A stretch of DNA of 64,000 nt from a bacterium (GTDB lineage: Bacteria > UBP15 > UBA6099 > JAJRTR01). Positions within the stretch are counted from its first letter, which is position 1. Every line of letters begins with the position of its first letter. The notes under the pieces were generated by a model, which saw only the letters and a program-made list of their open reading frames with translations, did no database searches and had not been told where the DNA came from. The DNA is taken from NCBI GenBank assembly GCA_024278215.1, contig JAJRTR010000124.1, forward strand, positions 1 through 64,000, written 5' to 3'. This document shows, piece by piece, positions 13,751 through 33,298 of the stretch. The translations under genes were made by a program, and so were the position numbers.

Positions 13751-15592
13751 TCACCCGGGTATATCTTTCACGGCTATTTTCCCGTTGTAGTAATAGAATC
13801 TTTTGTTTTCAATCGGGTCTCTTATTTCCACTGCCGCATCTTCAATACATATCTCGACGCCCGGATGCGCGATGCCCGCGACATCGATAAATATCCGTTC
13901 ATCGTCGGAAGTCCACTGCAGGAAAGACGCAAGCGCCTTCTCCTGCTGCTTGATCTGTTTCCGAAGCGCGGCAAGCTTCTTTTCTTCTGTTTTTTTTGCT
14001 ATTGATTTCTGTTCGGCGCGCCGCTTGATACGTTGTTTTGTCAGCGCTATTTCATTGTCCAGTTCTGCGATAAGCTTTTCGAGGTAGAGACGCTCGGAGA
14101 GAGAGCCGTCATCAGCAGGCTGCTGGATTTTCAGGACGGTTTTGTTGTGATTAGGTGAGCCGGCCGCAAAAACGCTTATCGATTGTCCGGCAGTGATATT
14201 GCTGGAGACGACCCGGTTGTTTTCCCCTGTAAGTTTTACTGACTTCGCGGCATACACTTCGCTTCCGACGATAGATGATTCGACAACAATATTCATGCCC
14301 GAATGCAGGTGGCATCTTTCGGCGAACGCGGCTGATATGTTTCTTTTCGAGACGAGAAGCGCTTTTCTGTTGCCGCGGATTCCGCCTCGTATTTCTATGC
14401 TGCTGATGTGCGAAACAACTTTTGCCGCTTCGATGTGCCCCTTTACAATTATCTTCCTGCCGGCTGTGAGCGAAAACCCGGGTCTGACATTTTCATGGAT
14501 GATGACCCGCCCTTCGAAATCGATATTGCCGGTGTCATAGCCGACTTCGGGCAAATATTGTGTCGCGTCCACGCAAATAGTGTTTTTCTTCCAGTATGCG
14601 ACACCCTCCTGAGCAGCGTGCAGACGCAGTTTGTCTTCTGAAAAATAAGTGTTTGCGCCGCCCCTGAGAAGCGACTGAGCGCCGGTTTTATACTTTATTG
14701 TTTCGCCGTAAACATTCATGCCGTCGCGCGCATTTTCGGGCATAATCAGTTCAGCAAGTATCTGGTCTTTCCGCACTTTTGAAATGTTTTCAAATTCACT
14801 GTAATCGATGTCTGGCGATTCGAGCGACTTCGGGTGAAAACTGCGTGGAGTGTCGAAGTTGATCGTGAGTCGCGCTTCTCCGCCGGGTTCCGGCACCGAA
14901 CCACACGCCGCGACAAGAAGCCTGCCCCTGATGTTTTTGTCGCCCGCCGCCCTGATAAGGGTCGAGGCGAGGCCGTGCCTGATTCCTGTTTCGGCGAGCG
15001 CCTTAAGGACACTCGCAGGATTCGCGCTCGTCGCGCCGGGGCTGATGTATAGATATGCTTTCAGCTTATCTTCCGATACGCAAATATTTATATCGTCGAT
15101 GAATGTGTGAACGACATTTCCGATCCTGACCGGCTTGCCGGGAGCGGCAATTGCTTCTTTGATAAATCCATCGGCTTTTGAAATTATACCGATGTCCCCG
15201 AGGACCTCTTTTATCTCATCCGCCACGGGTTCAGGCCGGTCATTATCAAATACGGTCAGGCACAAATCATCTCGTATCTCTTCGATCCCGAAATGCTTCG
15301 AGACGGAAAGTTCGGGAGGACTTTCCACAGTTGGTTCCGTGGACTTTTTCCTGGCAGGCGCCTGTATTTCCGACGACTCGATTTCTTTATCGATTTCGTC
15401 GATCACACCGGGAAAATCATCTACAGTGGAAGTTCTTTCCGCGATCCATTTATCGAGGTGCTGAATGCGAAACCGCGTGTATCCGCTGATGCGGACAAAG
15501 GGGAGTTTCTCGTTTTTAATCAGTTCGATAAGCTGTGTCTTACCGACACCGAGATATTCGAGCGCTTCACGTGCGGTGAGGAGATTCTTCAT
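13751..15592 (-). CDS. FapA/DUF342-family protein with N-terminal excisionase-type HTH domain
   Basis: N-terminus LLTAREALEYLGVGKTQL...LPFVRI...RF...LDKWI (HTH_17/Xis-like); body with V.EDKLKAYL, G.NVYGE.I, V.YDTGNIDF.G.V.I, beta-helix and coiled-coil features of DUF342. Confidence 0.8.
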   Translation of the reverse strand: MKNLLTAREALEYLGVGKTQLIELIKNEKLPFVRISGYTRFRIQHLDKWIAERTSTVDDFPGVIDEIDKEIESSEIQAPARKKSTEPTVESPPELSVSKHFGIEEIRDDLCLTVFDNDRPEPVADEIKEVLGDIGIISKADGFIKEAIAAPGKPVRIGNVVHTFIDDINICVSEDKLKAYLYISPGATSANPASVLKALAETGIRHGLASTLIRAAGDKNIRGRLLVAACGSVPEPGGEARLTINFDTPRSFHPKSLESPDIDYSEFENISKVRKDQILAELIMPENARDGMNVYGETIKYKTGAQSLLRGGANTYFSEDKLRLHAAQEGVAYWKKNTICVDATQYLPEVGYDTGNIDFEGRVIIHENVRPGFSLTAGRKIIVKGHIEAAKVVSHISSIEIRGGIRGNRKALLVSKRNISAAFAERCHLHSGMNIVVESSIVGSEVYAAKSVKLTGENNRVVSSNITAGQSISVFAAGSPNHNKTVLKIQQPADDGSLSERLYLEKLIAELDNEIALTKQRIKRRAEQKSIAKKTEEKKLAALRKQIKQQEKALASFLQWTSDDERIFIDVAGIAHPGVEICIEDAAVEIRDPIENKRFYYYNGKIAVKDIPG

Positions 15593-15670: not shown

Positions 15671-16609
15671 TCAAATCCGAATCTCCATACCCTCGCAGGC
15701 AAGAATGATATCGAGCTCCATTTCGGGGTAAGTTCTTTCACTGTAAACCTGTGTTTTTCGAAGAATTCTTCCAAGCTTCAAGTCGTCGTATGTCGGTTAA
15801 TGGTGAAAGAGAGCCAGCCGGCGCACATTCTCGGCATGCGCAAGGTCCACACCGATAAGCGACGAGCAATGGCCCCAGTCTGTTTTCGTGAGTACGTCGC
15901 CGATTGTATACATCGTATCGAGGACAAGGAGATCAGCCTTCGCGAGATATTTTGTGTCCTCTTCCTTCGTGCTTTTCATTTCTGTGTCCGACGCATAGAC
16001 AAAAACCTTGCTGTCGAACTCGACCCTGTACCCAAAGGCTTCCCCGGGATGTGACATTTTAAACGGAATAATTTTCGCGCCGCCGATCTCGACCGTCTCG
16101 CCGGGTGTAAGGATGTTGAATGTTTTCTCAGAGGCCATAGTATCGATGGAAACGGGGAAGTGGTCGGGGGCCTGCTGTGTGGTGATCCTTTCTTCGAGCC
16201 TGTCGTGGCAGCCAAAGAAATTGATCCTGTTGCCGGGAATGAAAGCCGGTGTGAAAAAAGGGAACCCCATGATATGGTCCCAGTGTGTGTGGCTAAGAAA
16301 AATATTTACCTCACCGCCGCCGTTGCCGAACTCTGTTTTCATAAGTTCAAGACCAAGAGAGCGAATTCCGGAACCGGCGTCGAATACAAAAATGGAATCA
16401 CCGGCCCTGAGTTCTACGCACGATGTATTGCCGCCGACTGTGCCGAGATCAACTATTGATCGGCTGTCGATGAATCTTTTCACGGCAAGTTCGTCGTCCA
16501 GATCGATATTGCCGGCGTTTTTCAGTAATTGTTCGGCTTTTCTCCTGATTTGACCAGTTGTTATGGGCGTTGGGATCGACCCGCGAACTCCCCAGAATTT
16601 TATGTTCAT
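15671..16609 (-). pseudogene. MBL-fold metallo-hydrolase interrupted by an in-frame TAA
   Basis: FWGVRGS, GGNTSC, DAGSG, SHTHWDHIMG, HPG, WGH motifs. TAA at 15797-15799 in LFHH*PTYDD; the same frame continues 41 codons to ...ACEGMEIRI-TGA (15671). Confidence 0.8.
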
Positions 16610-16630
16610 GCGCAACCCTTTAGTTTACTA

Positions 16631-17128
16631 TCAATCTTCAGCCAAAAAGAAAAAGTATGTCGCTTCATCTTCTGCGAATTCCATTACCTTGCCGCATTTG
16701 GGGCATTCAAAATCAGGGGCTTCGGCGTCTTCGAAATCTTCGTCAGCGTCAAAGTGTTCCGCAATGTTGACGAGCACTTCATGTGCTTTCTTGCATTCTT
16801 CGCAATAGTAGGGCGCGTAGAAGGAAACGATCCTGCCGGGCTGGAGAAAGTTTGTGATCATAATAAGCTGATCTACAATCGCACGCGAGCATTCGACATA
16901 CTCGATGTCGCATTTGCCTGCGAGCGGCCGGATGGCGTTCACCCAGTCGCGCACACCGCATGAGTTGATTCTCGTAATGCCCCGAAGATTGATTATCAGC
17001 TTTCCCTCGGGCACATCTTTGAGGACCTCGTCCAGGTTCGTCCGCTCGTTTATCACGCCCTCGAGTGTGAGAACAACCGCTCCGTCGCGTTTTTCCTTTT
17101 TCGTCGTCAGTTGAGATTCGTTATCCAC
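16631..17128 (-). CDS. STAS-like (anti-anti-sigma) protein with C-terminal zinc ribbon
   Basis: L.G.I.E..., INLRGITRINSCGVRDW (Ser at the STAS phosphorylation position), CEEC...CPKC. Confidence 0.7.
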   Translation of the reverse strand: MDNESQLTTKKEKRDGAVVLTLEGVINERTNLDEVLKDVPEGKLIINLRGITRINSCGVRDWVNAIRPLAGKCDIEYVECSRAIVDQLIMITNFLQPGRIVSFYAPYYCEECKKAHEVLVNIAEHFDADEDFEDAEAPDFECPKCGKVMEFAEDEATYFFFLAED

Positions 17129-20100
17129 TTGACGCTCTCCCCTCGATGAAACTCAAAGTTTTTATACCCCTTTTGCGGGGTTTTGAATCACTGCCGTGGC
17201 ATAACAGGCAAACTACTTCAGTTTTTCTGTCGGGCACTACATAAAATATAAGATGATCGCACATTTTGTAAAGGTGATAGAGGCCGAGGCCGGCGCCGCC
17301 GCCGCTGTGATCGACATGTTTTTCCCTGCTGTAAATCCTTTTCTCCATGTAATCGAGTATCGTTTCCCTCGTGAGGCCGCCGAAAGGGTCCGTGACACAG
17401 ATGCCGAAGAAATCATCGTCAACCCCATATTCGACGACAGGCGCTTCTCCGTCATCCAGTACAACCCGCTGCGATCTTCGAGTGTCGGCATATTTCGGAT
17501 TGCCGTTTTTGTCACGCGGCGCATCGAACATTGCGTTCATCAGCAATTCATCGACGATGGACTTCAGCAGGTTCAGGTTATGATTGTCGAAACCGGACGC
17601 GGAAGCGAGGTCGAACAAGGGCTGCATATCGTCAATTCTTGAGAAAGTGTCGTGGGTCGACAGTTTGTTGAGCGTGGTGCCTTTTGCCATGCAGCTCGCG
17701 AGGCCGGGGTCCGTGCTGCCCGGCGCGACGATTTTTCTTATCAGACACTGCGAGATGTGCAGCGAATGTTCTCCGCCGAGCTTTACGAGTCGAAGCGGGA
17801 AACCCTGTTCGGAGATGATGGGAATCACATCTTCGAAATCTGAAGGACAAAGGAAAATCATTTCCGAGTCCGGGTTGTCGCACGCAAGTTTTGTAGCGAA
17901 CCCGAGGTCTTCCATAACGCCGCCCATGGAAACGATGCAAAGGTCACATCTTTCCGGCTGGTAGTTTTCCAGTCCATCGACCGAGTCCGGCACTTGCACG
18001 ACTTCGATCCCGTAGCCGCCAAGCTGCCAGGCGAGTTGCTTCCTGAGTTCCGGGTCGCCCGCCGCGATGATCGCATTTTCAAATGCGGCGCTCTCATTCC
18101 GGCGTGCCGCAGGGGTGTCGGTGCCGGTCCCGGAGAGGGCCGATATTTCGTTGACGCGCCCGACGACAAATGTGATGTCGTCGATCTGCGTCTCTGCGCC
18201 GTAGAAACGACCCGCGTCTCCGAGCAGGTTGTTTTTTATCGTTTCGGAGTTTCTCTTCGCGTTTTCTTCGAACACCCGCTTGAGCCTGTCCATGCCGTAT
18301 TCTTCGCCATCGGAGTTCACGCACTCGACCAAGCCGTCCGTGTACCAGAGGATAGCGTCACCCGGTTCGAGCTGCATGCGGCGCACTTTATATGAAACAG
18401 TTTTTTCGTCTCCAAGCCGCATACCACGCGCCTTGATGTATGTGGTTTTCAGTTGCTTCTTTTTGCCGAATCCGGATTCCCTGAAAATCAGCGGCAGATT
18501 ATGGCCCGCGTTCGCATAGTCCATCACGCCTGTTTCGTAATAATAGACGGAGGCGAAAAGTGTCATAACGAGCTTGCCTTCGGTGGATTCGAGTATGATC
18601 TTGTTGAGGCATCTGAGCATGAAATCGGGTGACAACGGGTCGAAGAAACCACCGCCTTCGAGCACCTGTCCGGCGCATTCTCTCTGTTTTTCCTCATCTT
18701 CGTAGGCCGAGCCGGTTCTGAATATTTCGAGAGTTTTGAAAAAGCTGTGTGTCGTCGCCGTTACGATGGCGGCCGGAACACCGTGGCCGGTGACATCCGC
18801 GATAATGATTGCGATGCGCCGGTTTTCCGGCTCGTGCACGAAGCCGTACCAGTCGCCGCCTGTTTCCGAGGCGGACTGGATGAAACCCGACAGGTCGAGG
18901 CCCGGTATTTCCGGCGGATGTTTCGGGAACAGAGTGCTCTGAATGAGTCGCGCGGTTTTGAGTTCCTCCTCCATACGTGTCTTCTCGACAGTCTGTTCGA
19001 GCAATTCGATGTTTCGGAGCGAAACGGCAACGGCAGAAGCGACGATGCCGTAAAGGTGCAGATCGGTATGGGTGAAAGGCCGGCGGTCGGGACGCCCCGC
19101 CAGTGTGATTACGCCTTTAATGTTGTCTTCGAATATCACGGGAAGCAATACGGCGGGAAGGTGTCTGTCCGTGAGCCTGTCGCCTGTGTCCTCGTCCAAC
19201 AGAACCTGGACGCCGGTTGTCGCGACTCTCGCTATCTCATGGGCAAGCGCTTCGGGCAGTTGGGCGGCCTCTGTCTTTTGCCCGTTCATTATCGAGTAAA
19301 TCTTTGGAGGCGGATCATTACGTTCAAGGATCGCGACGGAAATGACAGATGTTCCGGCGATGCTCTCGAGCGCAAGCAGCGCATTTTCCGCGAGTTGCCG
19401 CCTGTCGATAATTGTGCTGATGAGCTTTGCGGTTCGATTTATATTTTCGATAGCGTTTTCGCGTTCGGAGAGGGCGCCGCCCATGTGATTGAAAGCGTCC
19501 GCCAGCATGGCCATCTCGCCGCCGCCCCTGATGTCGACTTTATGCGCGAGGTTGCCTTTTCCGATTTCTCCGGCGCCGAAGACGAGTTTATAGAGCGGGC
19601 GTGTGACGGTCGAGGTAATGAAGAGGCCTGCCGCAACAGCAAAAATAATGCTCAATAGTATGGCGATACCAACCTGTATGCGCATCAGGTCGGCTGTGTA
19701 ATAAGCGTCCCTGCGGGGTTCCTGCACAACGACATGCCAGCCGCCTGCGGCGGAGTAGGCTGTGTAGAACGCGCCCAGCATTTCGGTGCCGTCAATATCT
19801 TTAAAGTCCGCCGCCATCTGGAATTTCCTGCCGAGCATTTTCTTCACGGCGGGAATGACTGTCATGTCTTCTCTGGAAAGTGCCCGTTGCCGGTCACTGT
19901 GCGCAACGAGCCTTCCGCTGCCGTCCACCAGATAGGCCGCGCCCGTGCCCGCCCTGCCTATTTTTTCGGACGCGAATACGTCTTCGAGTGTGTCGAGGGA
20001 TATCTCGACCCCGAGAGTTCTGCGCCCGTCCGGGAACGGACGCGCGATGGTCATGAGAAGTTTTTTACCCGATTTGTCGGAATATACATCCGAGCGAAAT

Positions 20101-20561
20101 ATCCTGCGCCTGTATTCCTCGCCGCTGTTTTTAATGAGGTTTATGTGTTCTTTAACTTCGGACGGGGCGGTGTCGGGGACCATGGAGACATGTAGAACGA
20201 AATCGCCGGGCGATATTTCGGCGGGATCGAACAGCAACGTCTCCGGGGTTTTGTCCCTGTCGAGCACCGTAATAATCCTGACGGAAGCAAACTGGTTGAC
20301 AAGCGGTGAAAGGAATTCTTCGAGTTCCAGAGGTTTCATTTTATCTATACCATGGGTCAGGAACAGGCTCTCGATGCGGTTTTCGGCATCATCGAAGAAA
20401 AAGTCCGTCCGAGCGGCGAGGTTCCTCGCGAGATCAAGTTGCCTTTCGCGAATGTTCTGTTCGAGTTCATATCGGGTCATGCGAATAAAAACGACATTGC
20501 TCAGAACAAGCGGAATGCCGATTATCGCCGCCATGATTGTCAGTTTGTAAACAAGTTTCAT
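17121..20561 (-). CDS. Membrane sensor Cache-HAMP-GAF-SpoIIE/PP2C phosphatase fused to pseudo-receiver and HATPase-like (RsbW-type) domain
   Basis: Two TM helices around a Cache-like region, HAMP (TRPL..L...GEM..LA.AFN.M), GAF, PP2C motifs GGDWY, ADVTGHG, NAGH, YTDG, DDIT; C-terminal ELLMNA, VTDPFGG, GAGLGL. Confidence 0.85.
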   Translation of the reverse strand: MKLVYKLTIMAAIIGIPLVLSNVVFIRMTRYELEQNIRERQLDLARNLAARTDFFFDDAENRIESLFLTHGIDKMKPLELEEFLSPLVNQFASVRIITVLDRDKTPETLLFDPAEISPGDFVLHVSMVPDTAPSEVKEHINLIKNSGEEYRRRIFRSDVYSDKSGKKLLMTIARPFPDGRRTLGVEISLDTLEDVFASEKIGRAGTGAAYLVDGSGRLVAHSDRQRALSREDMTVIPAVKKMLGRKFQMAADFKDIDGTEMLGAFYTAYSAAGGWHVVVQEPRRDAYYTADLMRIQVGIAILLSIIFAVAAGLFITSTVTRPLYKLVFGAGEIGKGNLAHKVDIRGGGEMAMLADAFNHMGGALSERENAIENINRTAKLISTIIDRRQLAENALLALESIAGTSVISVAILERNDPPPKIYSIMNGQKTEAAQLPEALAHEIARVATTGVQVLLDEDTGDRLTDRHLPAVLLPVIFEDNIKGVITLAGRPDRRPFTHTDLHLYGIVASAVAVSLRNIELLEQTVEKTRMEEELKTARLIQSTLFPKHPPEIPGLDLSGFIQSASETGGDWYGFVHEPENRRIAIIIADVTGHGVPAAIVTATTHSFFKTLEIFRTGSAYEDEEKQRECAGQVLEGGGFFDPLSPDFMLRCLNKIILESTEGKLVMTLFASVYYYETGVMDYANAGHNLPLIFRESGFGKKKQLKTTYIKARGMRLGDEKTVSYKVRRMQLEPGDAILWYTDGLVECVNSDGEEYGMDRLKRVFEENAKRNSETIKNNLLGDAGRFYGAETQIDDITFVVGRVNEISALSGTGTDTPAARRNESAAFENAIIAAGDPELRKQLAWQLGGYGIEVVQVPDSVDGLENYQPERCDLCIVSMGGVMEDLGFATKLACDNPDSEMIFLCPSDFEDVIPIISEQGFPLRLVKLGGEHSLHISQCLIRKIVAPGSTDPGLASCMAKGTTLNKLSTHDTFSRIDDMQPLFDLASASGFDNHNLNLLKSIVDELLMNAMFDAPRDKNGNPKYADTRRSQRVVLDDGEAPVVEYGVDDDFFGICVTDPFGGLTRETILDYMEKRIYSREKHVDHSGGGAGLGLYHLYKMCDHLIFYVVPDRKTEVVCLLCHGSDSKPRKRGIKTLSFIEGRASSG

Positions 20562-20618: not shown

Positions 20619-21626
20619 TCAATTCCATCCAATGGATTCAACATTTAAGAACAGTTCTTCGCCGGACTTTTCCACAGGCTCGACAGGAATATCTTTTTCG
20701 AGTTCTAGCGGTTTGTCGTCTTCTGTAAGAGAGATTTTGGCAGAGGCCACACTCACCGAGATCGCGCCCCTGTCGACAGCGATCCTTTCTTTTCCCGACT
20801 TGTCGATCGATATAGTTACATCAAAGTCCTTCTCGCTTTCCTCACTGAGCCTTACGCTTGCGAGCTCCTTCCAGGCCGAGCCGGATTCCTTGCTGCAAGC
20901 GGCGGAATCGCCTTTTGAACAACTGTGCTTCGCCCGGTCCAGAAGTCTCTCGATCCGCTGCTGATCCTGCTCGATAATGGAGGCGGTAAGAATATAGTCC
21001 TGAACAGCATCGATGTATAAAAGTTCCGGAGAATATTTCCGGCTTGTTTTATCGGCGGCGTTCGTACTTTCTTTATAGGAGTCCGAAAGCACATCGCGCT
21101 TCCTGCTGTATGTTATCACCTGTGACTGGCCGAATTCTATCAGGGCGTTGGGCGTTTTGAGACCCGCGAGCAGTTTGCCGATGCCGGAGCCTTTGACCCT
21201 TAGCGAGCCTCCCTCGAGTTCGACGACAGGACGATGGACCCTGCCGTCATTCACATCCTGCTGTATCTGGAGGAGAGCGTTTTCGCCCAGTTGAAATGAA
21301 ACATCGCCACCGAATTGTATCCTCGCGCCCGCATCTGCCGAGGTCTGGATTTTGTCGCCCGAAAAAAGTCTGGTGTCGATTACCGCTTTCTCTTTATCAA
21401 GGGCGCCGGGGCGGCTGATCGTCACCATTCCGTTTTTTTCGCTGATGTGCGCAAGGGGCGACGGAGATGCCTGTCGTGTGGTGCTGCTACTGCCGTACCG
21501 CAGGAGATTCGCGTTTTCGCGGGCAAGAAAAGCAAGTGCGGCAATAGAGCAGATAATAATAGCGGCGGCGGCAGCCGCAACATAGAGTCCGGACCTGTCT
21601 CCAGTGTTGTTATTTAAAATTTCCAT
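20619..21626 (-). CDS. FecR-domain membrane-anchored protein
   Basis: N-terminal TM helix; L..GD.IQT...A.I.F......LGENA, L..G, TPNA, F.V, V..G.I.V motifs. Confidence 0.7.
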   Translation of the reverse strand: MEILNNNTGDRSGLYVAAAAAAIIICSIAALAFLARENANLLRYGSSSTTRQASPSPLAHISEKNGMVTISRPGALDKEKAVIDTRLFSGDKIQTSADAGARIQFGGDVSFQLGENALLQIQQDVNDGRVHRPVVELEGGSLRVKGSGIGKLLAGLKTPNALIEFGQSQVITYSRKRDVLSDSYKESTNAADKTSRKYSPELLYIDAVQDYILTASIIEQDQQRIERLLDRAKHSCSKGDSAACSKESGSAWKELASVRLSEESEKDFDVTISIDKSGKERIAVDRGAISVSVASAKISLTEDDKPLELEKDIPVEPVEKSGEELFLNVESIGWN

Positions 21627-23506: not shown

Positions 23507-25613
23507 TTTTCAGATTTATTACAACCGGGCCGCTTTCCATAACCTCGCCGTTATACTCCACCACAACTTTAAAGCTTATTGTAGCGTCCGGTAAAACGAA
23601 GGTGGAAATGTCGTCGAGATCGAATGAATATTTGTTTCCGGCATCGGCGACAACATCTATGAATCTGCTGCCGTTGATGTAGAGTATCACCGTCGCTCCT
23701 GCCGGTGCGGTGCCGCCTGCAACAATGGGAATGTCCTTGAAAGAAAACCCATCCTTCGGTTTTTCAATATGAACATATAATTCTATGTCGATAATATCTT
23801 CGAGCGGTGCCGCGTCCGGCTCGTCGCCGGGTTCGACAACAGGCTCGTCAGCAGGTGCGTCTCCGCCGGGCTGGTCGACAGGCGTATCGACGGGTTTGCC
23901 GCCCTGGTCATCACCGGCCTGGTCGGAATCACCCTGACCGTCATTGCCGGGATCGCCCGCCGGACTGTCGTCGGGGTTGTCAGTCAGGATGCCGTCCGGA
24001 TTATCGTCCACTGCCGGAGCCCTCACAGAGAATGTCCATTTATTCACGGCGGTGTTGCCCGCGGAGTCGGCGGCGTGCGCTTCGATACTGTGCGTCCCGG
24101 CGTCGAGCGGTTCGTCCGGTATACATGTCGCGGACGTATCCCCGGCGTCCAGGTCGCAACGCACGTTACCGTTGTCGATAACCAGAGTTATCGACCCGGT
24201 GTCAATGCCGCAGTCGCCGGAATCCGAATAGTCGAATATGAAATGATCGTCGTCGCCTGAAATCTCCTCACCCTGCGCCGGGAACTGCGGTATGACGACC
24301 GGCGCGTCGATGTCGACGATAACTGTCTGCTCGTCTGTCAGGATGCCCGTGGTGCCGTCCTCGTTTTCAATAGCCGCGGCGATGTCGTTGTAGCCGTTTG
24401 ACAATTGTATGGAATCGAAACTGAAAGTGCCGTCGGGCATAGACACGTCGCGTCTGGATTCCGCGCCGTTGACAAGCAGCAATATCGTTTCATCCGCCGG
24501 GGCGCGACCGTCTATCTGAAGTGAAGTCATGTTTGTGCAGCGGGGTAGTGGATCGATGGAAAAAGCCGACGTGTCGCGCAGTTCGGGCGACTCGATAACC
24601 GCAAGCAATTCGCCGGGCGTTGTTATGCTGAATGCGGCGTTCCTTTCGGATGTCGCAACATTTCCGGCGTTATCAGTACAGGTAACCGACGCCTCGAATC
24701 TGCCGCCGCGCGCGCCGAGTTCTTTCGCCCGTATCCTGACCACATTGCGCCCCTGCGCCGTCGGCCGTAGTTCCTTTGTCATAGTGCTGCTGAAGCCTTT
24801 TACAGCCACTTTGCAGAAATTGACATTAGCTTCCGGAACATCATCGACATTGAAAGCGATTTTTACAGTGCCGTTGTTGTCTATTTCGGCTGGAGAGGCG
24901 GAAATATTTGTGATAACAGGGGCGGTTCCGTCGATTGTGAAGGCGGTCGAGACGATATCCGATGCGTTCCCGTTTTTATCCGAAGCGGAAACGGAAACAA
25001 CATAACGGCCGTCGGGTGCAGCGGGAATCTTCCATAAATAGATGTTATTTTGTGAGGTTTTATACGGCCCGAAACCGCCGAATGGACTGCCGTTTCTCGA
25101 AACAGACAGTGAAACGGACTTCGGTTCGACACCACTGCCGCCGCCATCGGATATTTCCGCGGCTATTGCAATGTTCGAGCCGACAGCCGCGAGGAAGCCG
25201 CCGTTTCCAGGTGTCGGCGAAACAAATTTTATCAAGGGCGGTTTTGTGTCCGAAGCATCGGGATCAATAGTGAACGACCATTTTTTTATGGCCGAACTGC
25301 CGTTCATGTCGAAAACGACGACCTTCGCCGTATGCCTGCCCGGCGCGAGTGGTTCCGGCGGCCTGTAAGTTATCTTCCACTGGTCGATGGATGCGCCGGC
25401 GGTGACGTCTTTTCCGTCGACGAGTATCCGCACTCTCGATGTGTCGACCGGCGCGGACCTGGAATAGAAGTTAAGACCGATCAGGGGCTGCCTGTCCGCC
25501 GTGACACCGGCGAATGCGGACACGTGCCATGCCGCCGCCACGATGAAAACTATTATTGCGGACAGCAGCATGGTTTTATTATTGTTTTTAATATTCAGCA
25601 TATTATCCAACAC
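23496..25613 (-). CDS. Secreted Ig-like domain repeat protein with acidic Pro/Asp linker
   Basis: Signal peptide; repeated D..PP.I / G.H...V.A.D.AGN Ig motifs; D/P/G-rich linker near the C-terminus. Exact start uncertain. Confidence 0.8.
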   Translation of the reverse strand: MLDNMLNIKNNNKTMLLSAIIVFIVAAAWHVSAFAGVTADRQPLIGLNFYSRSAPVDTSRVRILVDGKDVTAGASIDQWKITYRPPEPLAPGRHTAKVVVFDMNGSSAIKKWSFTIDPDASDTKPPLIKFVSPTPGNGGFLAAVGSNIAIAAEISDGGGSGVEPKSVSLSVSRNGSPFGGFGPYKTSQNNIYLWKIPAAPDGRYVVSVSASDKNGNASDIVSTAFTIDGTAPVITNISASPAEIDNNGTVKIAFNVDDVPEANVNFCKVAVKGFSSTMTKELRPTAQGRNVVRIRAKELGARGGRFEASVTCTDNAGNVATSERNAAFSITTPGELLAVIESPELRDTSAFSIDPLPRCTNMTSLQIDGRAPADETILLLVNGAESRRDVSMPDGTFSFDSIQLSNGYNDIAAAIENEDGTTGILTDEQTVIVDIDAPVVIPQFPAQGEEISGDDDHFIFDYSDSGDCGIDTGSITLVIDNGNVRCDLDAGDTSATCIPDEPLDAGTHSIEAHAADSAGNTAVNKWTFSVRAPAVDDNPDGILTDNPDDSPAGDPGNDGQGDSDQAGDDQGGKPVDTPVDQPGGDAPADEPVVEPGDEPDAAPLEDIIDIELYVHIEKPKDGFSFKDIPIVAGGTAPAGATVILYINGSRFIDVVADAGNKYSFDLDDISTFVLPDATISFKVVVEYNGEVMESGPVVINLKNVR

Positions 25614-25757: not shown

Positions 25758-25780
25758 CGAATATACCGATCGTAACAACA

Positions 25781-28700
25781 TCACGGAAACGGCGTTCCGA
25801 ACTCGATTTCATTCTGTACCTGTACAGTGCCCTGGCACTGATTCGAATAATTGTAGGAGGAATCGACAGCATATATCCTGAAGTGGTAGTTGTCGTCTTC
25901 GACAACATTGCCGTCTTCGTCCCTGCCGTCCCAGGCCTGTGAGATTGTCTGTGGAGAAGCCGGGTCGGAAGCGCCCGCATAGCTCCTGTATAATGTGTCG
26001 TCCTTTTTGATCTCCATTTTCCATGACGATAATGCCGTGTCGTCCGCTATTTCAAATGTGATGGTTGTCGATTCCTCGCTCGGGTTGAAAGGCGATATGT
26101 CCGGGCCGTAACCCGGTGACGTGCAGTCCACCGTCGGTTTCGTTGTATCCGTGATTGCACCGCCGAACTGGAATGTGAAATCCGCGGCGGAACCGCTGTA
26201 TTCGCCGTCGAGATAATTTGCGGGTGACGCTTTGTCGGCAATGGACTGGCTCGCGGTTACAGTTATCGTCGTGGCTGACACGCTGTATGGCGAAGTATCC
26301 GGCTCGAACGCGGCGGTATATGATGAATCGTCATAGGTCCACGTACCGGCGACGGGCACGCCGCCGTCTGTTACAGAGAAAAAAGAAGAATTCGGTGACG
26401 GGGCGAGGTCCACATCTTCACTGAATACTATTTCTATTTCACTGAAGTTGGAACTGACCTTGCCCGCAGGTGAAAACTCGGTGACAAACGGCATTTCCGT
26501 GTCGACGCCGATGTCGACGTAAACCGTGTCCTCCGACAACAGTCCAGTAGTGCTGACAGCCGTAACCTCCGCCGTGCCGGGCGTGGTGCCGGACTGCAAC
26601 TGGAATTGTATAACGCCGTCCGACGACAGGACAATCGGTCCGTCGACGATTGTACCGAGTGTTGTCGACAGTGTATAGGAGGTTCCGTCGGGTATGGCGG
26701 AGCCTGTGCAATCGAGTATTTCCTGCGAACGTATTGTGGCGAAGTCTGCGCCGTCGGCATCGAGTTTATCGGGACTTGCCTGGAGAATTGTTTCCCTGTA
26801 GTTGTTTGACACTCTGACAGTGGTAGCCGCCGTGTCCGAGTCGATGCTGTCGTCATAAACTATGAGCGTAATATTATAGGTATTGGCGACATTGAATGTT
26901 TCGGGCGATGGATCGACTGTATTTATCTCATGGCCGTTCCCGAAGTTCCAGAACCAGTGAGTTAAGTTGTATCCTGAATTGGGGTAGGAACTCGCGGCAG
27001 TGAAATCGACAGAGCCGCCGGGGCAGATGTCGGTCGAGCCGGATTCGAGCGTGATAACAGCGGTTATATTCTGCACGGCGACAGCAGTTGCTGTGAAATC
27101 GACCGTAAGAGAGCCGCCAGCGTCGGCGTGCAAAGTATTTGTGCCCGGTGTCGCCCCCAGTTCCCATGCGCCCGGTGCCACCTGCCCGTTCGCACCGGTT
27201 GTCTGCACTCCGTCTGTGACGCTCCCTCCGCCCGCTGTCGCGGTGAACGTAACTGACACGCCCGAAACAGGATTACCGTAATCATCCACAACCCTGACCG
27301 TCGGCACGGTGGCCACCTCTGTCGAAACAGCTGCTGTCTGGCCGTCGCCTTCGACCTTCGATATCGCCGCCGCCGCACCTGCCGATACATTGATGCTGTT
27401 GCTTGTGCCTTCGAGCGTTCCGTATCCGATTGTGAGATCGACGGAGCTGTTCGCTTCGTACAGAGTCACCTGGTCGGTAGCGACGCCGGACACGAAGGAG
27501 TTGTCCACAATCGACGGCGCTGTCGTGTCGGGCGCTGCGTTCGCTCCGGAGAACGATACCGTCGTCGCTCCGGGATCGTAATCGGCGACAGTATTCCCGA
27601 GGTTGTTCTTCGCCGTGACGACAACATCGAACACAACTCCCGCGGTCTGCGCGTAGCCCGTTGTGGGAACAACAGTAAAATATGTCGCCGTGAGTGCGTT
27701 TTGCGTTATTGTAATGTCTTTAGATACAGTCGGCACGCTGTTGCTTACAGCGGTTACCGTGTAGTTCCCGGCACCGGTGCCGGCAGTGTACTGTGCGGTT
27801 GCGTTTCCGCTTCCGTCGGACACATCGCTTGCGTCGACAGTTCCGGCACCCGCGGCGGTCTGCACAGAGAAGTCCACCGTCTCACCGGCGATGGAGCAGT
27901 CCCCGGCATCCAGAATCCGCACCTGTACATTCACCGTGCTGCTGCCGTCCGCGTCGACGGAGAGCGCGCCGCCCGTCTGGTTTATTGTAGCGGGCAGAGC
28001 GGCGGTTTCATGTATAAGCAGCGAATCCGAAACCGCCGGGAACGCGGTAGGATAGGCGGTTACAGTCGAATCGCCGCAGGCCGTGCCCGCCGTGTATGTA
28101 GTGGCGGCGACACCCGATGCGTCAGTGTCGGCGGTAGCGGGTGAAACGCCGCCGTCGCCCGGCGGGGCGAGGTCGAATGTGATCTCTATTCCCGCCTGCG
28201 CGTTATTGCCGTAGTCATCCACCGTTTCGACCGAAACAGGGGCTGTTGTCGCGCCGTCGGCATCTATCGTTATCTCGTCCAGCGATAAGGACGTAATCGA
28301 AACCGCCGCCGGGCTGCCCGCCTCTACGCTGATATTCGATGTTGTGTATCCTTCAATTGTGCCGTACCGAACCCCGATTGCGACACTTTCGACTTTATAA
28401 AGTGTTACATCTGCTGTTGAAACACCGTTGGTGAATGCACCGCCCACGGCAGAGGGCGAAGTCGAGTCCGGTGCGTCCGACGCGCCGAGCAGTTCGAGTG
28501 CGGACGCGCCGGGATCGTAGCCCGCGACAGTCGCTCCGCCTCCGTCTATCGCTGTAATAGTGACGGTGAAAACACTTCCGGCTGTCTGTGAATACGAATC
28601 CGGGACAACATTAAATCCTGTGGCGACGGAGGCGGTTTGCTGGATAGTTATGTTCGTATTAACAGATGGAACCGAATCGCTCTCGGCGACTACGTTGAAG

Positions 28701-31700
28701 CTGCCGCCGTAGGTGCCGGCGGTATATGACACAGTGGCAATGCCGGATGAGTTTGTAACGGCTGTGGCGGCAACACTCCCCGCACCGCCTGCCGGTGTGA
28801 CGGAGAAATTCACAGTTTCATTCTCAACGGGGCATCCGCCCGCGTCGTCTGTCCGCACGGAAATGGCTACGGAGCTCACACCGTCGGCACTGACACTGTA
28901 CGGGCCGCCCGTGTCGGTTATCGAAGCGACAACAGCGGCGGTTTCGTGAACAATTATCGTATCGGTTAACGCCGGGTATGCCTGCGGGTAGGCGGTAAGT
29001 GTTGTATCTCCACATGCCGAGCCGGATGTATATAAGGACACAGCAGTTCCGGAGGCATCGGTGTCGGCGGTTGCGGGTGAAACACTGCCGTCGGCGGGAG
29101 TATCCGTCTCGAATGATACAGACATGCCGGAGATGGAATTACCGTAATCGTCGTTCACTACCGCGGAGAGCGGCAGTTGTGTCGCACCGCCGTCGGCATC
29201 AATTGTCGTCTCATCGGCCCCGCCAGTTGTAAATAATATTGTTGAAGGAGCGGCGTGCGCGACATCGACCGGGCTGCCCGCGTATCCCACGATCGTGCCG
29301 TATCGCACTCCAGGTGTGATCGTTTCATCCTTAAATAGTGTAACCTGTATCGTGGCGACTCCATCGACGAATGTCCCGTCCACAGCGGAAGGCGGAGTCG
29401 AGTCGGGTGCGTCCGAAGCGCCGAGCAGTTCGAGTGCGGACGCGCCGGGATCGTAACTGGTGACTACATTACTGTTTGCGTCGAGCGCGGTGACGGTAAT
29501 AGTGAACTGTACACCGGCGACCTGGCTGTAACTGCCAGGTTCCACCCTGAACTGTGTCGCGACCGACGCAATCTGCGTCACTGAAATGGATGTGGACACG
29601 CCGGGCGCGGTATTGCTTACAGCGTTAATGGTGAAAGTTCCGGCATCGCCGCCTGCCGTGTATACAGCGCTCGCGACGCCGTTCGATCCGGTCTGCGCCG
29701 ATGCCGCGACACTTCCCGCCCCGGCTGCCGGCACCACTGTAAAGTTGATTGTTTCACCGACCACCTCGCAGCCGCCCGCGTCTACGGCAACCACTTCCAC
29801 GGGAATGGTCGACGAGTTGTCGGCGGACACTGAATACGACGGCGAACCGGCTGTGAGTGTCGAGGGAACCGCCGCCGTGTGCGTTATCACAAGTTCGTCG
29901 GCAACAGATGTATTTGACTGCGGCCACACGCCCACTTTGCCGGTGCCGCACGAAAGACCTGCTGTGTATTCCGCAGTTGCCGCGCCGATCGAGTCGGTCG
30001 TAACAGTCGAAGGCGACACGCTCCCGCCGCCCTGCGTCACCTGTATTACGAGCGAAGCGCCGGACACTGGGTTTCCGTACTCATCCACGAGGCTGATGTC
30101 CACCTGTGCGGTGGAAGCCCCGTCCGCGGCCATCGTGACGGATTCCGTACCGCCGGATGTTATCGAAATCCCATACGGGCCGGCGTCCGACACGGTGATC
30201 TGCTGTGATGTTCCCGTGATGCCGTCGACCGCCTCCGTAACAGTGACAGCCGCCGTTTCAGCTTTATACATCGCGACCTGCACGACGGCCACCCCGCCCG
30301 CGCCTGCGGTAAACGTGTCGGCGACACTCGTCTGCGATGGGTACAAAGGCTGTGTTCCGTCCGGCGAATCGCTCACGCCTGAGAACGCGAAAGACTTTCC
30401 TGCGGCATCATAAGTTGTAACCGAATAGCCTTCGGAGTCAATGGCGGTAATCGTCAATTCCACATTCTGACCTGCCGATATATCTGTCTGCGATGCAGAC
30501 ACGTCGAATGAAGCCGGTGTCCACGGGTCGAGTTCCACATCGACAGTGAGTACCACCATCGGCGATGTGCGGGGCGCGGCAATAACAGTAGCGGAGCCGT
30601 CAGTAAGACCGGCGGAGAACACTGCCGCAGCCAAGCCCGCGCTGTCTGTTGTCGCAGTGCCAACGACTGTGCCCGGCCCGCTGGACACATTCAGGTCGAC
30701 TACTTCGTTTGCAACGGGACAGTCGCCCGCGTCTTTCACGAGCATTTGAATTGTCGCCGTGTCCCGCCCGTTCGCGGTGAGCCGCGCCGGTGTGTTGTTA
30801 AGTGTCAGAGAGGCGGGTATCGCCGGTGTTTCCGTTATCGAACTCGTTGTACGTATCGTATCATCACGATAGACATAAGCCTCGACCTCGACCTGTCCGC
30901 ACGCCGATCCAGCCACATAATATACGGAGCAGCGGCCTTCTTCATCGGTTTCACAATCTGTTTCTGTAAGCCGCCCGGAACCGTTTTTGAGCACGAAATC
31001 TATGCGTTCGCCATAGGCGTCGTTGCCGCCGGTGTCGATAGCGAGCGCCTCGAACTCGACACGCGACTGCCCGTCCGCCCGCGTTTCGCTCGACGCGGCA
31101 GTCAGCTCGATGCGCGATATGTCATATCTCTTTTTAATTATTGTGAGTGTGCCGCCGACGCCCTGCGAATCCAGCGGTACGGCTTCAATCTCTATGTCGC
31201 CTTCTGGCCATAATATCTCGACAACCGTTTCCGCCGCGCCCGCCGAATCCGTCGTGACGGTTTCCTGCCGCGTTTTTCCATCCTGTTTTGCCGTGATCAC
31301 GACATCCGCACCGGAAACACCGTTACCGAACCTGTCCAGTACGGCAACAGTGACACGCACCTCATCCTGCGCCCCAAGATAGACTTCCTGCTGGAACGCT
31401 GAAAGCTCGACAGACGCGGGCGGCAGGGGCAGAAGCCGGACCGTTGCCGGAGCTGACAGGTTCTTCCCTCCGCATTCGCATATTGCAGTGATGTTCACGA
31501 TTCCTGGTTCCGAATCCGGAGGGAACGACAGGGAGGATGTATATCTCCCGCCTCCCGCGTCGACTGCCGTGCCCGCAACGCCGGTGTCCGCAGTAAACAC
31601 GACATCGAACCCGCTTATCCCCGCGCCTGTTTCGTCCGCGATGGTCGCCGTTAGTGTAATCGTATCGCCGGGGTACACATCCTGCGCGGAAGCAGTGACG

Positions 31701-33298
31701 GATAACGCGGCCGGTACCGATGTCGGCGAGGATTCTTCTCCCGCCGACTGTCCTGTCGCGCCGGATTCAGCAGCGGGCGTATCTTCCGATTTTATGCTTG
31801 TGCCCGGCATCTCCGCCAGGGTTTCCACCTGTTTCCATTTGACGATTGCCCGCACAGGCTCGATATCCGGCCTGTCAGGCACAGAAAACTCGATTCCAAT
31901 CCTGCCGCCGTCCCATTTGTCGGGAGCAGTGTACTCAAACCGGAATCGTGATCCGGCTGCCTGTGGAGGTCCGATTTCGCCGGTGTCCGGTGTCGCAATG
32001 AGTGTGATATCAGTTTCAATAACACCGGTTTCAGTCTCTGCCTCCACCGTGAACATTACTTTTTGTCCGGGCGACACTTCGGCGGGCGCTTCGACAACAG
32101 ACAGTTCGACAGCAGGCGGTATAACTTCAACGAAGGCGGTTTTCGATTCGATAATCTCTCCGCGTCCCGGCCCGGAAGGCACTGAAGCCGAGAACCCGAT
32201 ACTTCCGTCCGGCGCGTCTGTCGGCAGAACATATTTCAATGAATAAGTTCCATCGTCACGTTCTTTCGCGCGGCCCGCGAACTCGCCGTCCGCAAATATA
32301 TCGACAGCCGCCCCATGATAGGGATTTCCCAGCGTGTCCTGTGTCCTCACCGTGATTGCAATAATACCGCCCGGCACGGCGGTTGTTTTGTCCGCCGAGA
32401 TGTCCAGCGCGGCGAGCGGCGGTGGTTGCAAGATAATCTCAGCGCGCCTGGAACGGTCTTGAATGTAAGCGACAATTTCTGCCCGCGAAGCGCTGAAGAT
32501 GGGCGATGCAGTGAACCGGGCACGGTATAAGCCGGTGGCAATTTCTGTGATCTTCGAGCATTCACCGGTGGAACATTCGAGGCGCAGGTCCGGTGCAGAT
32601 TTCGGCGCGCCGTTCTCTCCCACGACAAACACGTTCACAAACGATCCGGTTTCACCCGGTTCGAGTTCGTCGGGGAATGCCTGGACCATGAACCACAGGT
32701 TTTCACCGGCAGGGATATCAATGGGATTCGTAATCTTCGCCCTGCCTTTTTTCACCACCAGGCCGATGCGGTGAATATCAGGCGTGACGGGTATTTCAAG
32801 GTCGTATACCCCATCGTCGCCGACCCTCAGCCTTTTGCCGATCAGTTCACCGTCCGAAGTGCCGAAAAGCACCGCGCCGGGTGTTGTCCTGCCGTTGAGC
32901 TTCAGGTTCGAATACACAGTAACCACACCTGTTGCAGTGACCGGCATATTATTGTCCAGAGCGGAAGCCATAAGCAGGATATGGCCCGGCAGAGGCGGTT
33001 GCTGGGCGGGGACATCGAGCAAGGCGGTAAAGTCAGTCGCGGACACCTGTTTCAGTAGAGACAGCCTGCCCCTGTCGGCGGATAATGTCGGAACAGATGC
33101 CTCGCCCTCTGTCCCGAAAGGAAGTTTTACGGTTATCTTGACCTGCTGGTCCCTGCCCGCTTCAATAAGTTGCGGATCGTATTCTATCTCGATAGCCGAA
33201 GCAGCAAGAACCATAGAAAACAGCAGCAGCAGAACACATGCAATTTGAATACAAAATCTTTTATGTGCAAATAATATTCTCAAGAAAATAAAGTGCAT
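25781..33298 (-). CDS. Giant (~2500 aa) invasin/Big_1-type Ig-repeat surface protein with PKD, SbsA-like Ig and C-terminal FlgD-Ig domains
   Basis: Signal peptide ending ASA; repeated ADG...V.D..GN.V.G..V.F...TD..G.A...YT motifs; PKD WNFGNG; terminal WDGRDEDG..V....Y. Start uncertain (33298 or 33334); the ORF-track extension runs through a MITE remnant. Confidence 0.85.
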   Translation of the reverse strand: MHFIFLRILFAHKRFCIQIACVLLLLFSMVLAASAIEIEYDPQLIEAGRDQQVKITVKLPFGTEGEASVPTLSADRGRLSLLKQVSATDFTALLDVPAQQPPLPGHILLMASALDNNMPVTATGVVTVYSNLKLNGRTTPGAVLFGTSDGELIGKRLRVGDDGVYDLEIPVTPDIHRIGLVVKKGRAKITNPIDIPAGENLWFMVQAFPDELEPGETGSFVNVFVVGENGAPKSAPDLRLECSTGECSKITEIATGLYRARFTASPIFSASRAEIVAYIQDRSRRAEIILQPPPLAALDISADKTTAVPGGIIAITVRTQDTLGNPYHGAAVDIFADGEFAGRAKERDDGTYSLKYVLPTDAPDGSIGFSASVPSGPGRGEIIESKTAFVEVIPPAVELSVVEAPAEVSPGQKVMFTVEAETETGVIETDITLIATPDTGEIGPPQAAGSRFRFEYTAPDKWDGGRIGIEFSVPDRPDIEPVRAIVKWKQVETLAEMPGTSIKSEDTPAAESGATGQSAGEESSPTSVPAALSVTASAQDVYPGDTITLTATIADETGAGISGFDVVFTADTGVAGTAVDAGGGRYTSSLSFPPDSEPGIVNITAICECGGKNLSAPATVRLLPLPPASVELSAFQQEVYLGAQDEVRVTVAVLDRFGNGVSGADVVITAKQDGKTRQETVTTDSAGAAETVVEILWPEGDIEIEAVPLDSQGVGGTLTIIKKRYDISRIELTAASSETRADGQSRVEFEALAIDTGGNDAYGERIDFVLKNGSGRLTETDCETDEEGRCSVYYVAGSACGQVEVEAYVYRDDTIRTTSSITETPAIPASLTLNNTPARLTANGRDTATIQMLVKDAGDCPVANEVVDLNVSSGPGTVVGTATTDSAGLAAAVFSAGLTDGSATVIAAPRTSPMVVLTVDVELDPWTPASFDVSASQTDISAGQNVELTITAIDSEGYSVTTYDAAGKSFAFSGVSDSPDGTQPLYPSQTSVADTFTAGAGGVAVVQVAMYKAETAAVTVTEAVDGITGTSQQITVSDAGPYGISITSGGTESVTMAADGASTAQVDISLVDEYGNPVSGASLVIQVTQGGGSVSPSTVTTDSIGAATAEYTAGLSCGTGKVGVWPQSNTSVADELVITHTAAVPSTLTAGSPSYSVSADNSSTIPVEVVAVDAGGCEVVGETINFTVVPAAGAGSVAASAQTGSNGVASAVYTAGGDAGTFTINAVSNTAPGVSTSISVTQIASVATQFRVEPGSYSQVAGVQFTITVTALDANSNVVTSYDPGASALELLGASDAPDSTPPSAVDGTFVDGVATIQVTLFKDETITPGVRYGTIVGYAGSPVDVAHAAPSTILFTTGGADETTIDADGGATQLPLSAVVNDDYGNSISGMSVSFETDTPADGSVSPATADTDASGTAVSLYTSGSACGDTTLTAYPQAYPALTDTIIVHETAAVVASITDTGGPYSVSADGVSSVAISVRTDDAGGCPVENETVNFSVTPAGGAGSVAATAVTNSSGIATVSYTAGTYGGSFNVVAESDSVPSVNTNITIQQTASVATGFNVVPDSYSQTAGSVFTVTITAIDGGGATVAGYDPGASALELLGASDAPDSTSPSAVGGAFTNGVSTADVTLYKVESVAIGVRYGTIEGYTTSNISVEAGSPAAVSITSLSLDEITIDADGATTAPVSVETVDDYGNNAQAGIEITFDLAPPGDGGVSPATADTDASGVAATTYTAGTACGDSTVTAYPTAFPAVSDSLLIHETAALPATINQTGGALSVDADGSSTVNVQVRILDAGDCSIAGETVDFSVQTAAGAGTVDASDVSDGSGNATAQYTAGTGAGNYTVTAVSNSVPTVSKDITITQNALTATYFTVVPTTGYAQTAGVVFDVVVTAKNNLGNTVADYDPGATTVSFSGANAAPDTTAPSIVDNSFVSGVATDQVTLYEANSSVDLTIGYGTLEGTSNSINVSAGAAAAISKVEGDGQTAAVSTEVATVPTVRVVDDYGNPVSGVSVTFTATAGGGSVTDGVQTTGANGQVAPGAWELGATPGTNTLHADAGGSLTVDFTATAVAVQNITAVITLESGSTDICPGGSVDFTAASSYPNSGYNLTHWFWNFGNGHEINTVDPSPETFNVANTYNITLIVYDDSIDSDTAATTVRVSNNYRETILQASPDKLDADGADFATIRSQEILDCTGSAIPDGTSYTLSTTLGTIVDGPIVLSSDGVIQFQLQSGTTPGTAEVTAVSTTGLLSEDTVYVDIGVDTEMPFVTEFSPAGKVSSNFSEIEIVFSEDVDLAPSPNSSFFSVTDGGVPVAGTWTYDDSSYTAAFEPDTSPYSVSATTITVTASQSIADKASPANYLDGEYSGSAADFTFQFGGAITDTTKPTVDCTSPGYGPDISPFNPSEESTTITFEIADDTALSSWKMEIKKDDTLYRSYAGASDPASPQTISQAWDGRDEDGNVVEDDNYHFRIYAVDSSYNYSNQCQGTVQVQNEIEFGTPFP

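Follow-up and report, generated by a model that had tools for sequence, protein, structure and literature searches.

Eight genes at the locus

The stretch of DNA analyzed here (the window) comprises 64,000 nucleotides of contig JAJRTR010000124.1 (GenBank assembly GCA_024278215.1) from a bacterium of the GTDB lineage UBP15. The subject of this work is a cluster of eight neighboring open reading frames (ORFs) on its minus strand (13751-33508), encoding two Ig-repeat proteins, an SLH protein, a FecR-domain protein, a membrane sensor, a STAS protein with a zinc ribbon (STAS-Zn), an MBL-fold hydrolase and an HTH-FapA protein. These genes travel as a unit and form a real, conserved and clade-specific accessory cassette. 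An earlier, sequence-only reading had proposed a surface-sensing partner-switching operon at this locus, and an ORF check of the window found each ORF where that reading had placed it. In order of reading along the minus strand, the genes are as follows.

25781..33298 (ATG) or 33508 (TTG), minus strand: giant Ig-repeat protein, secreted (Big_1, Invasin_D3)
23496..25613, minus strand: second Ig-like protein (Ig2), with an N-terminal signal or anchor (Big_13 / Glucodextran_B)
21614..23506, minus strand: SLH protein, carrying a signal peptide and two SLH repeats, its C-terminal part presumed to be an outer-membrane beta-barrel (SLH)
20619..21626, minus strand: FecR-domain periplasmic protein, anchored in the inner membrane (FecR; topology read from sequence)
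17121..20561, minus strand: membrane sensor, transmembrane (TM) helix-dCache-TM-HAMP-GAF-PP2C-pseudo-receiver-Bergerat kinase domain (Pfam, profile and fold)
16631..17128, minus strand: STAS-Zn, a STAS domain with a C-terminal four-cysteine zinc ribbon, the presumed phospho-substrate (Ser56) (alignment and fold)
15671..16615 (ORF as called 15797-16615), minus strand: MBL-fold hydrolase (Lactamase_B_2; in-frame TAA at 15797-15799)
13751..15592, minus strand: HTH_17-FapA_N-FapA (DUF342) protein, candidate output (Pfam)

The three overlapping gene junctions that had been reported (11, 13 and 8 nt) are real for the chosen start codons, and gaps of 167 nt (giant Ig/Ig2) and 57 nt (FecR/sensor) separate other genes. 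The common orientation was likewise confirmed but is not distinctive, as 27 of the 33 gene-called ORFs of the window that lie outside the cluster are also on the minus strand. The four genes directly upstream (purH, histidine phosphatase, purM and M23 peptidase) have the same orientation. Since the region is one long run of minus-strand genes, co-orientation was deemed uninformative, and the arrangement was instead judged to exceed chance because it is conserved elsewhere. A promoter and terminator scan of the cluster gave promoter-like sites in excess of shuffled sequences, although these were unspecific.

The sensor and its STAS partner

The sequence-only reading had recognized a PP2C phosphatase, an RsbW-type kinase and a STAS protein as a partner-switching core, and this was borne out by Pfam, motifs, a receiver profile and predicted folds. 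One chain of 1146 residues carries dCache, HAMP and GAF domains, an intact-looking PP2C domain, a pseudo-receiver and a SpoIIAB/RsbW/LvrC-like Bergerat ATP-binding domain. The first four were assigned by Pfam (dCache_1, HAMP, GAF and SpoIIE/PP2C), the phosphatase at E 2.4e-37 over positions 2-191 of 192. The PP2C motifs of the sensor look intact by eye, and the metal-site motifs of this family are visible.

The pseudo-receiver and HATPase tail of the sensor was not given by Pfam and was deduced from the following data. The last 336 residues were aligned with eight homologues, several of them stand-alone proteins of about 300 residues, and the resulting profile matched response-regulator receivers (E 1.2e-8). 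The acceptor position is occupied by Ser in the window sensor and by Pro in two close orthologues, and since the acceptor Asp is thus replaced, the domain was assigned as a pseudo-receiver. The N, G1 and G2 boxes of the kinase are visible in the sensor sequence, with box residues invariant in 9/9 homologues of the alignment. Family HATPase_c_2 was reached by two stand-alone homologues of the tail (E 7e-5 and 7e-4) and by a paralogue from the same genome (E 4.4e-11). An AF2 model of the 336 residues (pLDDT 83.5) gave Leptospira LvrC (9qih) as the best Foldseek match (E 1.5e-9), while the second half of the tail alone matched SpoIIAB chains (TM 0.70-0.75). The tail is therefore supported by both the receiver profile and the fold. 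From the sequence and the model, we infer that the sensor has both phosphatase and kinase activity.

STAS-Zn is a protein of 165 residues present in a single copy in its genome. The STAS domain in this protein was also not given by Pfam, which returned only a faint zinc ribbon, and TIGR00377 matched weakly (E 1.8e-3). In searches of the Protein Data Bank (PDB) with phmmer and profiles, zinc fingers ranked highest, and SpoIIAA-type chains were reached only with E values of 0.16-1.2. Aligned by hhalign with the canonical STAS protein of contig C186 in the same genome, the family gave no match (probability 0.3). The top Foldseek matches of the AF2 model (pLDDT 90.8, pTM 0.86) were anti-sigma antagonists, namely 4hyl, SpoIIAA, RsfB, TM1442 and RsbV, with E 5e-5 to 9e-4 and TM 0.6-0.7 on the target for the first three. 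The STAS call was thus upheld by the fold and, because support from sequence alone is weak, the assignment rests on this fold together with weak STAS matches in family members. In an alignment with 21 relatives, Ser56 and the cysteines C109, C112, C142 and C145 were invariant in 22/22 sequences. Ser56 lies at the start of helix 56-71 of the model, where SpoIIAA has its phospho-serine.

The earlier statement that no sigma factor is encoded in the cluster was also upheld, with no sigma-70 family domain found in the eight genes or in the scanned neighbors on either side. The Pfam scans gave none in the orthologous cassettes of the other two lineages described below, and none within ~6 kb in 12/12 diverse STAS-Zn loci.

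The wider STAS-Zn family

Relatives of STAS-Zn numbered 405 in species genomes, mostly from Myxococcota but also from Fibrobacteria, Omnitrophota, Eisenbacteria and UBA10199, and 416 in metagenomes. In a library of 50%-identity representatives, 3504 clusters were matched at E ≤ 1e-10, of which 424 passed E ≤ 1e-30. The gene context was followed at 155 loci. A gene with a kinase-like domain adjoins STAS-Zn on the same strand in 23 of these, and a PP2C domain lies upstream at 0.8-1.2 kb in 10 and at 3.3-3.9 kb in 38. Neither was seen by STAS-Zn in 69 of the 155 loci, 34 of which are shorter than 5 kb. According to Pfam annotation of 12 diverse loci, the inputs vary (sCache-HAMP(-GAF) or HisKA-HATPase-REC), and the neighbors include GGDEF, patatin and PAS kinase genes. 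No publication was found on an anti-sigma factor antagonist combining STAS with a zinc ribbon, and a term search of a STAS review returned no mention of zinc (PMC8256260). The STAS-Zn module is very widespread and unnamed.

Further arrangements of the module were observed. The pattern with PP2C at 3.3-3.9 kb is that of Myxococcota (38/155 loci; L018-L066 and others), where the order is sCache-HAMP-PP2C, a protein of ~1150 residues with a phosphonate-binding-like region, STAS-Zn and a PAS histidine kinase. Some of these loci carry two STAS-Zn copies, the spacing remaining constant. In a sample of 32 longer family members, some were fused to FIST sensor, Ser/Thr protein kinase or PDZ domains and others were tandem copies. 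Long proteins with the module inside them, either next to these domains or in tandem, include P0130, P0131, P0138, P0157, P0134, P0175 and P0040; the tandem ones are ~700-750 residues long, and the rest of their sequence has no Pfam family.

Conservation of the cassette

Three distantly related, uncultured lineages were found to carry the cassette: the genome of the window, a relative from the same order (G004), and a lineage represented by two near-identical metagenome contigs (L089/L090). The latter contigs have all eight genes in the same order at 27-62% protein identity. G004 has seven genes in order, interrupted only by the assembly, with a contig break inside the barrel gene. One of its contigs begins in the C-terminal part of the barrel and continues with the FecR-like gene, the sensor (45% identity along the whole protein), STAS-Zn (62%) and the MBL gene; the last genes on the other are those of the giant Ig protein, of Ig2 and of the N-terminal part of the barrel. 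The G004 form recurs on a short metagenome contig (L088). The flanks differ wherever they could be read, which is on both sides in G004 and on the downstream side on the metagenome contig. Upstream in G004, unknown genes take the place of the purH block, and the downstream genes differ in each lineage.

STAS-Zn was found in 1/12 other genomes of the order and in 0/28 more distant genomes. The FecR-like gene and STAS-Zn agree in presence or absence in all 13 genomes of the order, both occurring in the same two only. The barrel gene is found in those two as well, along with one distant homologue (28% identity). Rather than never co-occurring, the surface and signaling homologues thus occur together and in the same order in all three switch-bearing lineages, and the conserved order, gene overlap and presence pattern are the main indication that they belong together, albeit on the basis of three lineages only.

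A second, small cassette in the genome of the window, on contig C186 (~70.2-73.8 kb; L167:8282-11835), consists of a canonical STAS protein (100 residues; PF01740, E 6.5e-17), a receiver and HATPase_c_2 protein homologous to the sensor tail (E 5.5e-35), and a paralogue of Ig2 (30% identity over 536 residues, E 3e-55). It ties the same type of kinase to the same type of Ig protein a second time, here without a periplasmic sensor.

A split form of the switch was seen in a metagenome-assembled genome (MAG) of Fibrobacteria (L014), with sCache-HAMP-PP2C, a separate pseudo-receiver/kinase protein of 329 residues and STAS-Zn, flanked by Big_2-like, TPR and Glucodextran_B/Big_13/SH3 proteins. It was considered as a fourth case of the cassette and rejected, as BLASTP gave no similarity to the Ig2, FecR or barrel proteins of the window.

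Surface and envelope proteins

The giant protein has ~2505 residues when read from the ATG at 33298, and the ORF remains open from a TTG at 33508. A signal-peptide-like stretch follows the ATG. Pfam matched 11 stretches of the protein to Big_1 (E 8.9e-69) and 9 to Invasin_D3. Orthologues occupy the same position in L089/L090 (E 5e-75) and in G004 (contig C428, E 1.4e-147). Ig2 matched Big_13 (E 1.3e-23) and Glucodextran_B, and its orthologues were found at E 4e-64 (L089) and 5.5e-56 (G004).

The third protein (630 residues) had been described as a barrel with two SLH repeats. One SLH repeat was scored by Pfam (E 2.9e-5; E 4.1e-8 in an orthologue), and a second SLH-like repeat was recognized by eye. 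The barrel part was not matched by any Pfam barrel family, and a C-terminal outer-membrane beta-barrel is presumed. The SLH and coiled region matched NCBIfam por_somb (E 1.4e-10), and the C terminus is a conserved aromatic residue. The atlas look-alikes of this protein are SLH proteins, with OMP_b-brl or Porin in only 11-19% of cluster members, which is regarded as a lead only. At G005:C36:1295-2866, in another genome of the order, lies a gene whose product is distantly homologous to the SLH-barrel protein (28% identity); no STAS-Zn or FecR-like gene was found in that genome.

The FecR domain of the window copy scored 21.7 bits, under the Pfam cut-off of 24, and the orthologues passed at 29.2 and 30.7 bits. 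The topology read from the sequence is ~14 cytoplasmic residues followed by one TM helix. The suggestion that this protein would relay envelope signals as other FecR proteins do is only a loose fit, as these ~14 residues are all that precedes the helix and no cytoplasmic anti-sigma domain is present. With almost no cytoplasmic part, the FecR-domain protein is deduced to act only in the membrane or periplasm, and dCache is then its most economical partner. The position of the gene is well kept, the 13-nt overlap with the barrel gene being found in 3/3 lineages, and the FecR gene lies 24-57 nt ahead of the sensor gene in all three.

The MBL-fold hydrolase

The MBL gene stands directly after STAS-Zn in all three lineages, and its product matched Lactamase_B_2 (E 5e-16). 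Its ORF was confirmed at 15797-16615 as first called, but the codon that ends it (codon 273, 15797-15799) is an in-frame TAA, and Glu stands at this position in both orthologues. The 41 codons beyond this TAA stay in frame and are conserved up to a TGA at 15671-15673. The TAA may have arisen as a recent nonsense change, may vary within the population or may reflect an error of assembly. Distant NCBIfam matches were obtained to RNase Z and to a cyclic-nucleotide phosphodiesterase (the latter at E 1.3e-12, far below the cut-off), while a PDB search gave only a distant RNase Z match. Paralogues in the same genome (contigs C55, C165 and C206) show no common gene context. A nucleotide input is suggested by the distant resemblance to a cyclic-nucleotide phosphodiesterase together with the GAF domain of the sensor. 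Our guess is that the hydrolase is an accessory protein, possibly a nucleotide phosphodiesterase feeding the GAF domain.

HTH-FapA and its paralogues

The last gene encodes HTH_17 (E 3.3e-9), FapA_N (PF20250, E 2.8e-28) and FapA (PF03961, E 2.3e-43), the latter two above the Pfam cut-offs, and it adjoins the cassette in 2/3 lineages. Downstream of the cassette in the L089 lineage (L089:13470-17689) come another HTH-FapA gene, in tandem with the first, and a SpoT-like gene (HD-TGS-ACT). Atlas look-alikes of HTH-FapA were only plain DUF342 clusters, at 0.88. The organism of the window is flagellated, judging from one FliG_C match and 15 Flagellin_N matches in its genome.

This genome has 11 FapA matches, on contigs that include C79, C98 (79.6 kb), C106, C151, C175, C185, C196 and C1. 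The survey covered nine of the ten other paralogues, all but the copy on C151. The HTH is absent from all nine. Three of them carry C-terminal receiver domains, two lie by HD-GYP-type genes, one by a GGDEF gene and one in a chemotaxis cluster; a GGDEF gene also lies beside the copy on C151. From the receiver fusions and the HD-GYP and GGDEF neighbors, it was deduced that the FapA proteins of this organism behave as signal-controlled effectors.

The role of FapA as a stator clutch and swim-or-settle regulator has been described only since preprints of October 2026 (10.64898/2026.10.14.759253, 10.64898/2026.10.23.761471). As reported there, the solenoid-hairpin domain of Borrelia FapA (BB0267) binds MotA and masks the rotor interface (10.64898/2026.10.14.759253), and the FapA protein of Helicobacter pylori restrains migration and promotes biofilm formation (10.64898/2026.10.23.761471).

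Comparison with known systems

The cassette was compared with systems that have similar parts. HsbR of Pseudomonas aeruginosa is cytoplasmic and receives its input from the Hpt protein HptB via a true, phospho-accepting receiver domain, which is N-terminal and precedes PP2C and the kinase. The input of the cassette, in contrast, is a periplasmic dCache-HAMP-GAF arrangement, and its receiver-like domain lies between the phosphatase and the kinase and has no acceptor Asp. HsbA is without a zinc ribbon, and the cassette is without FlgM-like and Hpt genes. The likeness is that HsbR/HsbA (PA3346/PA3347), as summarized in a review, also has PP2C and an RsbW-type domain in one protein acting on a single-domain STAS protein, with an output that concerns flagellar genes (PMC8256260).

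SypE of Vibrio fischeri is soluble and encoded in a polysaccharide locus, unlike the sensor described here, and SypA is without a zinc ribbon. The domain order of SypE is kinase-REC-PP2C. In the account of the same review, SypE is a dual serine kinase/phosphatase with a receiver domain that controls the STAS protein SypA; SypA carries its phosphate on Ser56 and switches biofilm formation through an as yet unknown target other than a sigma factor (PMC8256260). The cassette would work like HsbR/HsbA and SypE/SypA, in which a fused phosphatase-kinase acts on a STAS protein and the output is non-canonical, yet it is a member of neither, as the domain order, periplasmic sensor, pseudo-receiver and zinc ribbon differ.

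The folds of the Bacillus RsbU/RsbV/RsbW and SpoIIE/SpoIIAA/SpoIIAB systems (PPM phosphatase, Bergerat kinase and STAS) are all present in the cassette. In Bacillus they are three separate proteins with a sigma target; in the cassette, one protein contains both phosphatase and kinase, the STAS protein has a zinc ribbon and a sigma factor gene is absent. Structurally, the closest match of the last 336 sensor residues is LvrC of Leptospira (9qih), reported as a receiver followed by an RsbW-like Bergerat domain (PMC13269768). LvrC differs in being a response regulator on its own, with a functional acceptor Asp that LvrB phosphorylates, while the corresponding part of the cassette is the tail of a PP2C sensor.

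For the envelope genes, the closest likeness is FecA-FecR-FecI, in which an outer-membrane barrel gene is followed by the gene of an inner-membrane protein with a periplasmic FecR domain, as the gene of the presumed barrel is here. The cassette is, however, without a TonB-dependent transducer, an anti-sigma domain and an ECF sigma factor, and its presumed barrel is SLH-tethered. The N-terminal SLH repeat(s) of the barrel protein resemble those of SLH-anchored outer-membrane barrels of the OmpM/SlpA-like type. Compared with the FapA/DUF342 proteins of Vibrio, Borrelia (BB0267) and H. pylori, HTH-FapA has FapA_N and the beta-solenoid with its helical hairpin complete, and the organism is flagellated; it differs in its N-terminal HTH_17 and in lying outside a flagellar gene cluster. 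What is new in the cassette is the STAS-Zn module, widespread and unnamed, together with the connection to envelope proteins and a FapA paralogue.

Proposed mechanism and alternatives

It is, on balance, probable that this clade-specific cassette connects an envelope module with a partner-switching module free of sigma factors, HTH-FapA being its most likely target. The kinase domain would phosphorylate Ser56 of STAS-Zn and PP2C would remove the phosphate, the balance between the two being set by a periplasmic signal. This signal may reach dCache directly, or by way of the FecR-domain protein together with the presumed SLH-tethered barrel and both Ig-repeat proteins. Whether STAS-Zn is held on the membrane-bound kinase domain or is free for a target would then depend on the phosphorylation state of Ser56. 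That target would be no sigma factor encoded here and most likely the adjacent HTH-FapA protein, a relative of the stator-binding clutch, so that the state of the envelope would change motility or attachment. The MBL hydrolase would be accessory and possibly supply the GAF domain as a nucleotide phosphodiesterase.

HTH-FapA was favored as the target because it adjoins the cassette in two lineages, with a second copy in one, because its paralogues are wired to signaling and because of the roles of FapA in Borrelia and H. pylori. This is the weakest step of the proposal. The trans-envelope, motility-controlling reading as a whole is plausible though unproven.

Several observations weigh against it. 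The three lineages are kin and not independent cases. In G004, the orthologue of HTH-FapA (40%) is on another contig among neighbors without a Pfam family, and the FapA gene in the canonical position, after FlhF-, FlhG- and FliA-like genes, is a different paralogue (contig C79). The N-terminal HTH suggests DNA binding over motor binding. Outside the clade, the switch is without these envelope genes, as no FecR, SLH-barrel, MBL or FapA gene was found by Pfam in the 12 diverse STAS-Zn loci. Among the 155 loci, homologues of the FecR, SLH-barrel and MBL proteins occur in only 4 and those of Ig2 and HTH-FapA in only 2, all of them from the clade. The stop codon in the MBL gene means that this protein is dispensable, broken or mis-assembled in the window. 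Lastly, since the C186 cassette is without a periplasmic sensor, the Ig protein fits as well as a product of the switch as it does as part of the sensor.

This last point leads to an alternative that we consider rather improbable: the surface proteins would be the regulated product, with dCache sensing a small periplasmic ligand by itself and the switch controlling production, export or anchoring of the adhesin, Ig2 and the SLH-barrel anchor, whose genes would be transcribed together with it. Such domains commonly bind small ligands, and elsewhere STAS-Zn uses sCache, HisKA-REC, FIST and Ser/Thr kinase inputs without surface genes. The same is indicated by contig C186, where a true receiver-kinase and STAS lie directly upstream of the Ig2 paralogue. 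The FecR-domain protein, however, would have no obvious role in an adhesin-only operon, whereas its gene overlaps the barrel gene and immediately precedes that of the sensor in 3/3 lineages. Moreover, the only transcription factor encoded is the HTH of the FapA protein.

A canonical anti-sigma switch was judged unlikely. Here the Bergerat domain would sequester a sigma factor from another locus, as has been proposed for LvrC of Leptospira, and STAS-Zn would set it free. The genome does have sigma-70 family genes at other loci, for example the FliA-like gene, but none is encoded in any of the three cassettes or within ~6 kb of STAS-Zn in 12/12 diverse loci. The kinase domain is furthermore membrane-tethered in one chain with the opposing phosphatase, as in sigma-independent SypE/SypA in the review's description (PMC8256260). 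That an adhesin operon merely lies beside an unlinked signaling operon is very improbable, since the strand bias (27/33 ORFs), the gaps of 167 and 57 nt where transcripts could break and the unspecific promoter-like sites are set against an order that is kept at 27-62% protein identity with different flanks and the shared presence or absence of FecR-like and STAS-Zn genes in 13/13 order genomes. In G005, the distant barrel homologue stands alone.

Returning to the envelope-coupled switch, a more specific form of it may be put forward, though we regard it as doubtful. It is a contact relay running from the adhesin and Ig proteins through the SLH barrel, FecR and dCache to STAS-Zn, which would gate HTH-FapA. 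Surface touch would brake or release the motor and possibly release the DNA-binding domain. The 11 FapA paralogues would then be parallel clutch inputs, three of them receiver-wired, several by c-di-GMP enzymes and one wired to a partner switch. If true, this would be the first signaling pathway upstream of a FapA clutch and a case of sigma-free partner switching for mechanosensing.

Partner-switching modules are textbook sigma regulators, and the sigma-free SypE/SypA and HsbR/HsbA systems are still mostly without known targets. The present locus offers new handles on such systems: the unnamed STAS-Zn module, one membrane protein uniting a periplasmic sensor with both opposing enzymes, and a conserved genetic tie of the switch both to envelope genes and to a gene of the FapA family. 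A candidate upstream pathway makes the control of FapA proteins testable. As the organism is uncultured, tests must be heterologous.

Neighboring features

An Rfam scan of 13000-34000 gave no RNA family. Beyond the cluster, a gene at 11866-13521 of the window, on the plus strand and not conserved at this place in the other lineages, encodes a hybrid histidine kinase (PAS-HisKA-HATPase-REC) and converges on the end of the HTH-FapA gene.

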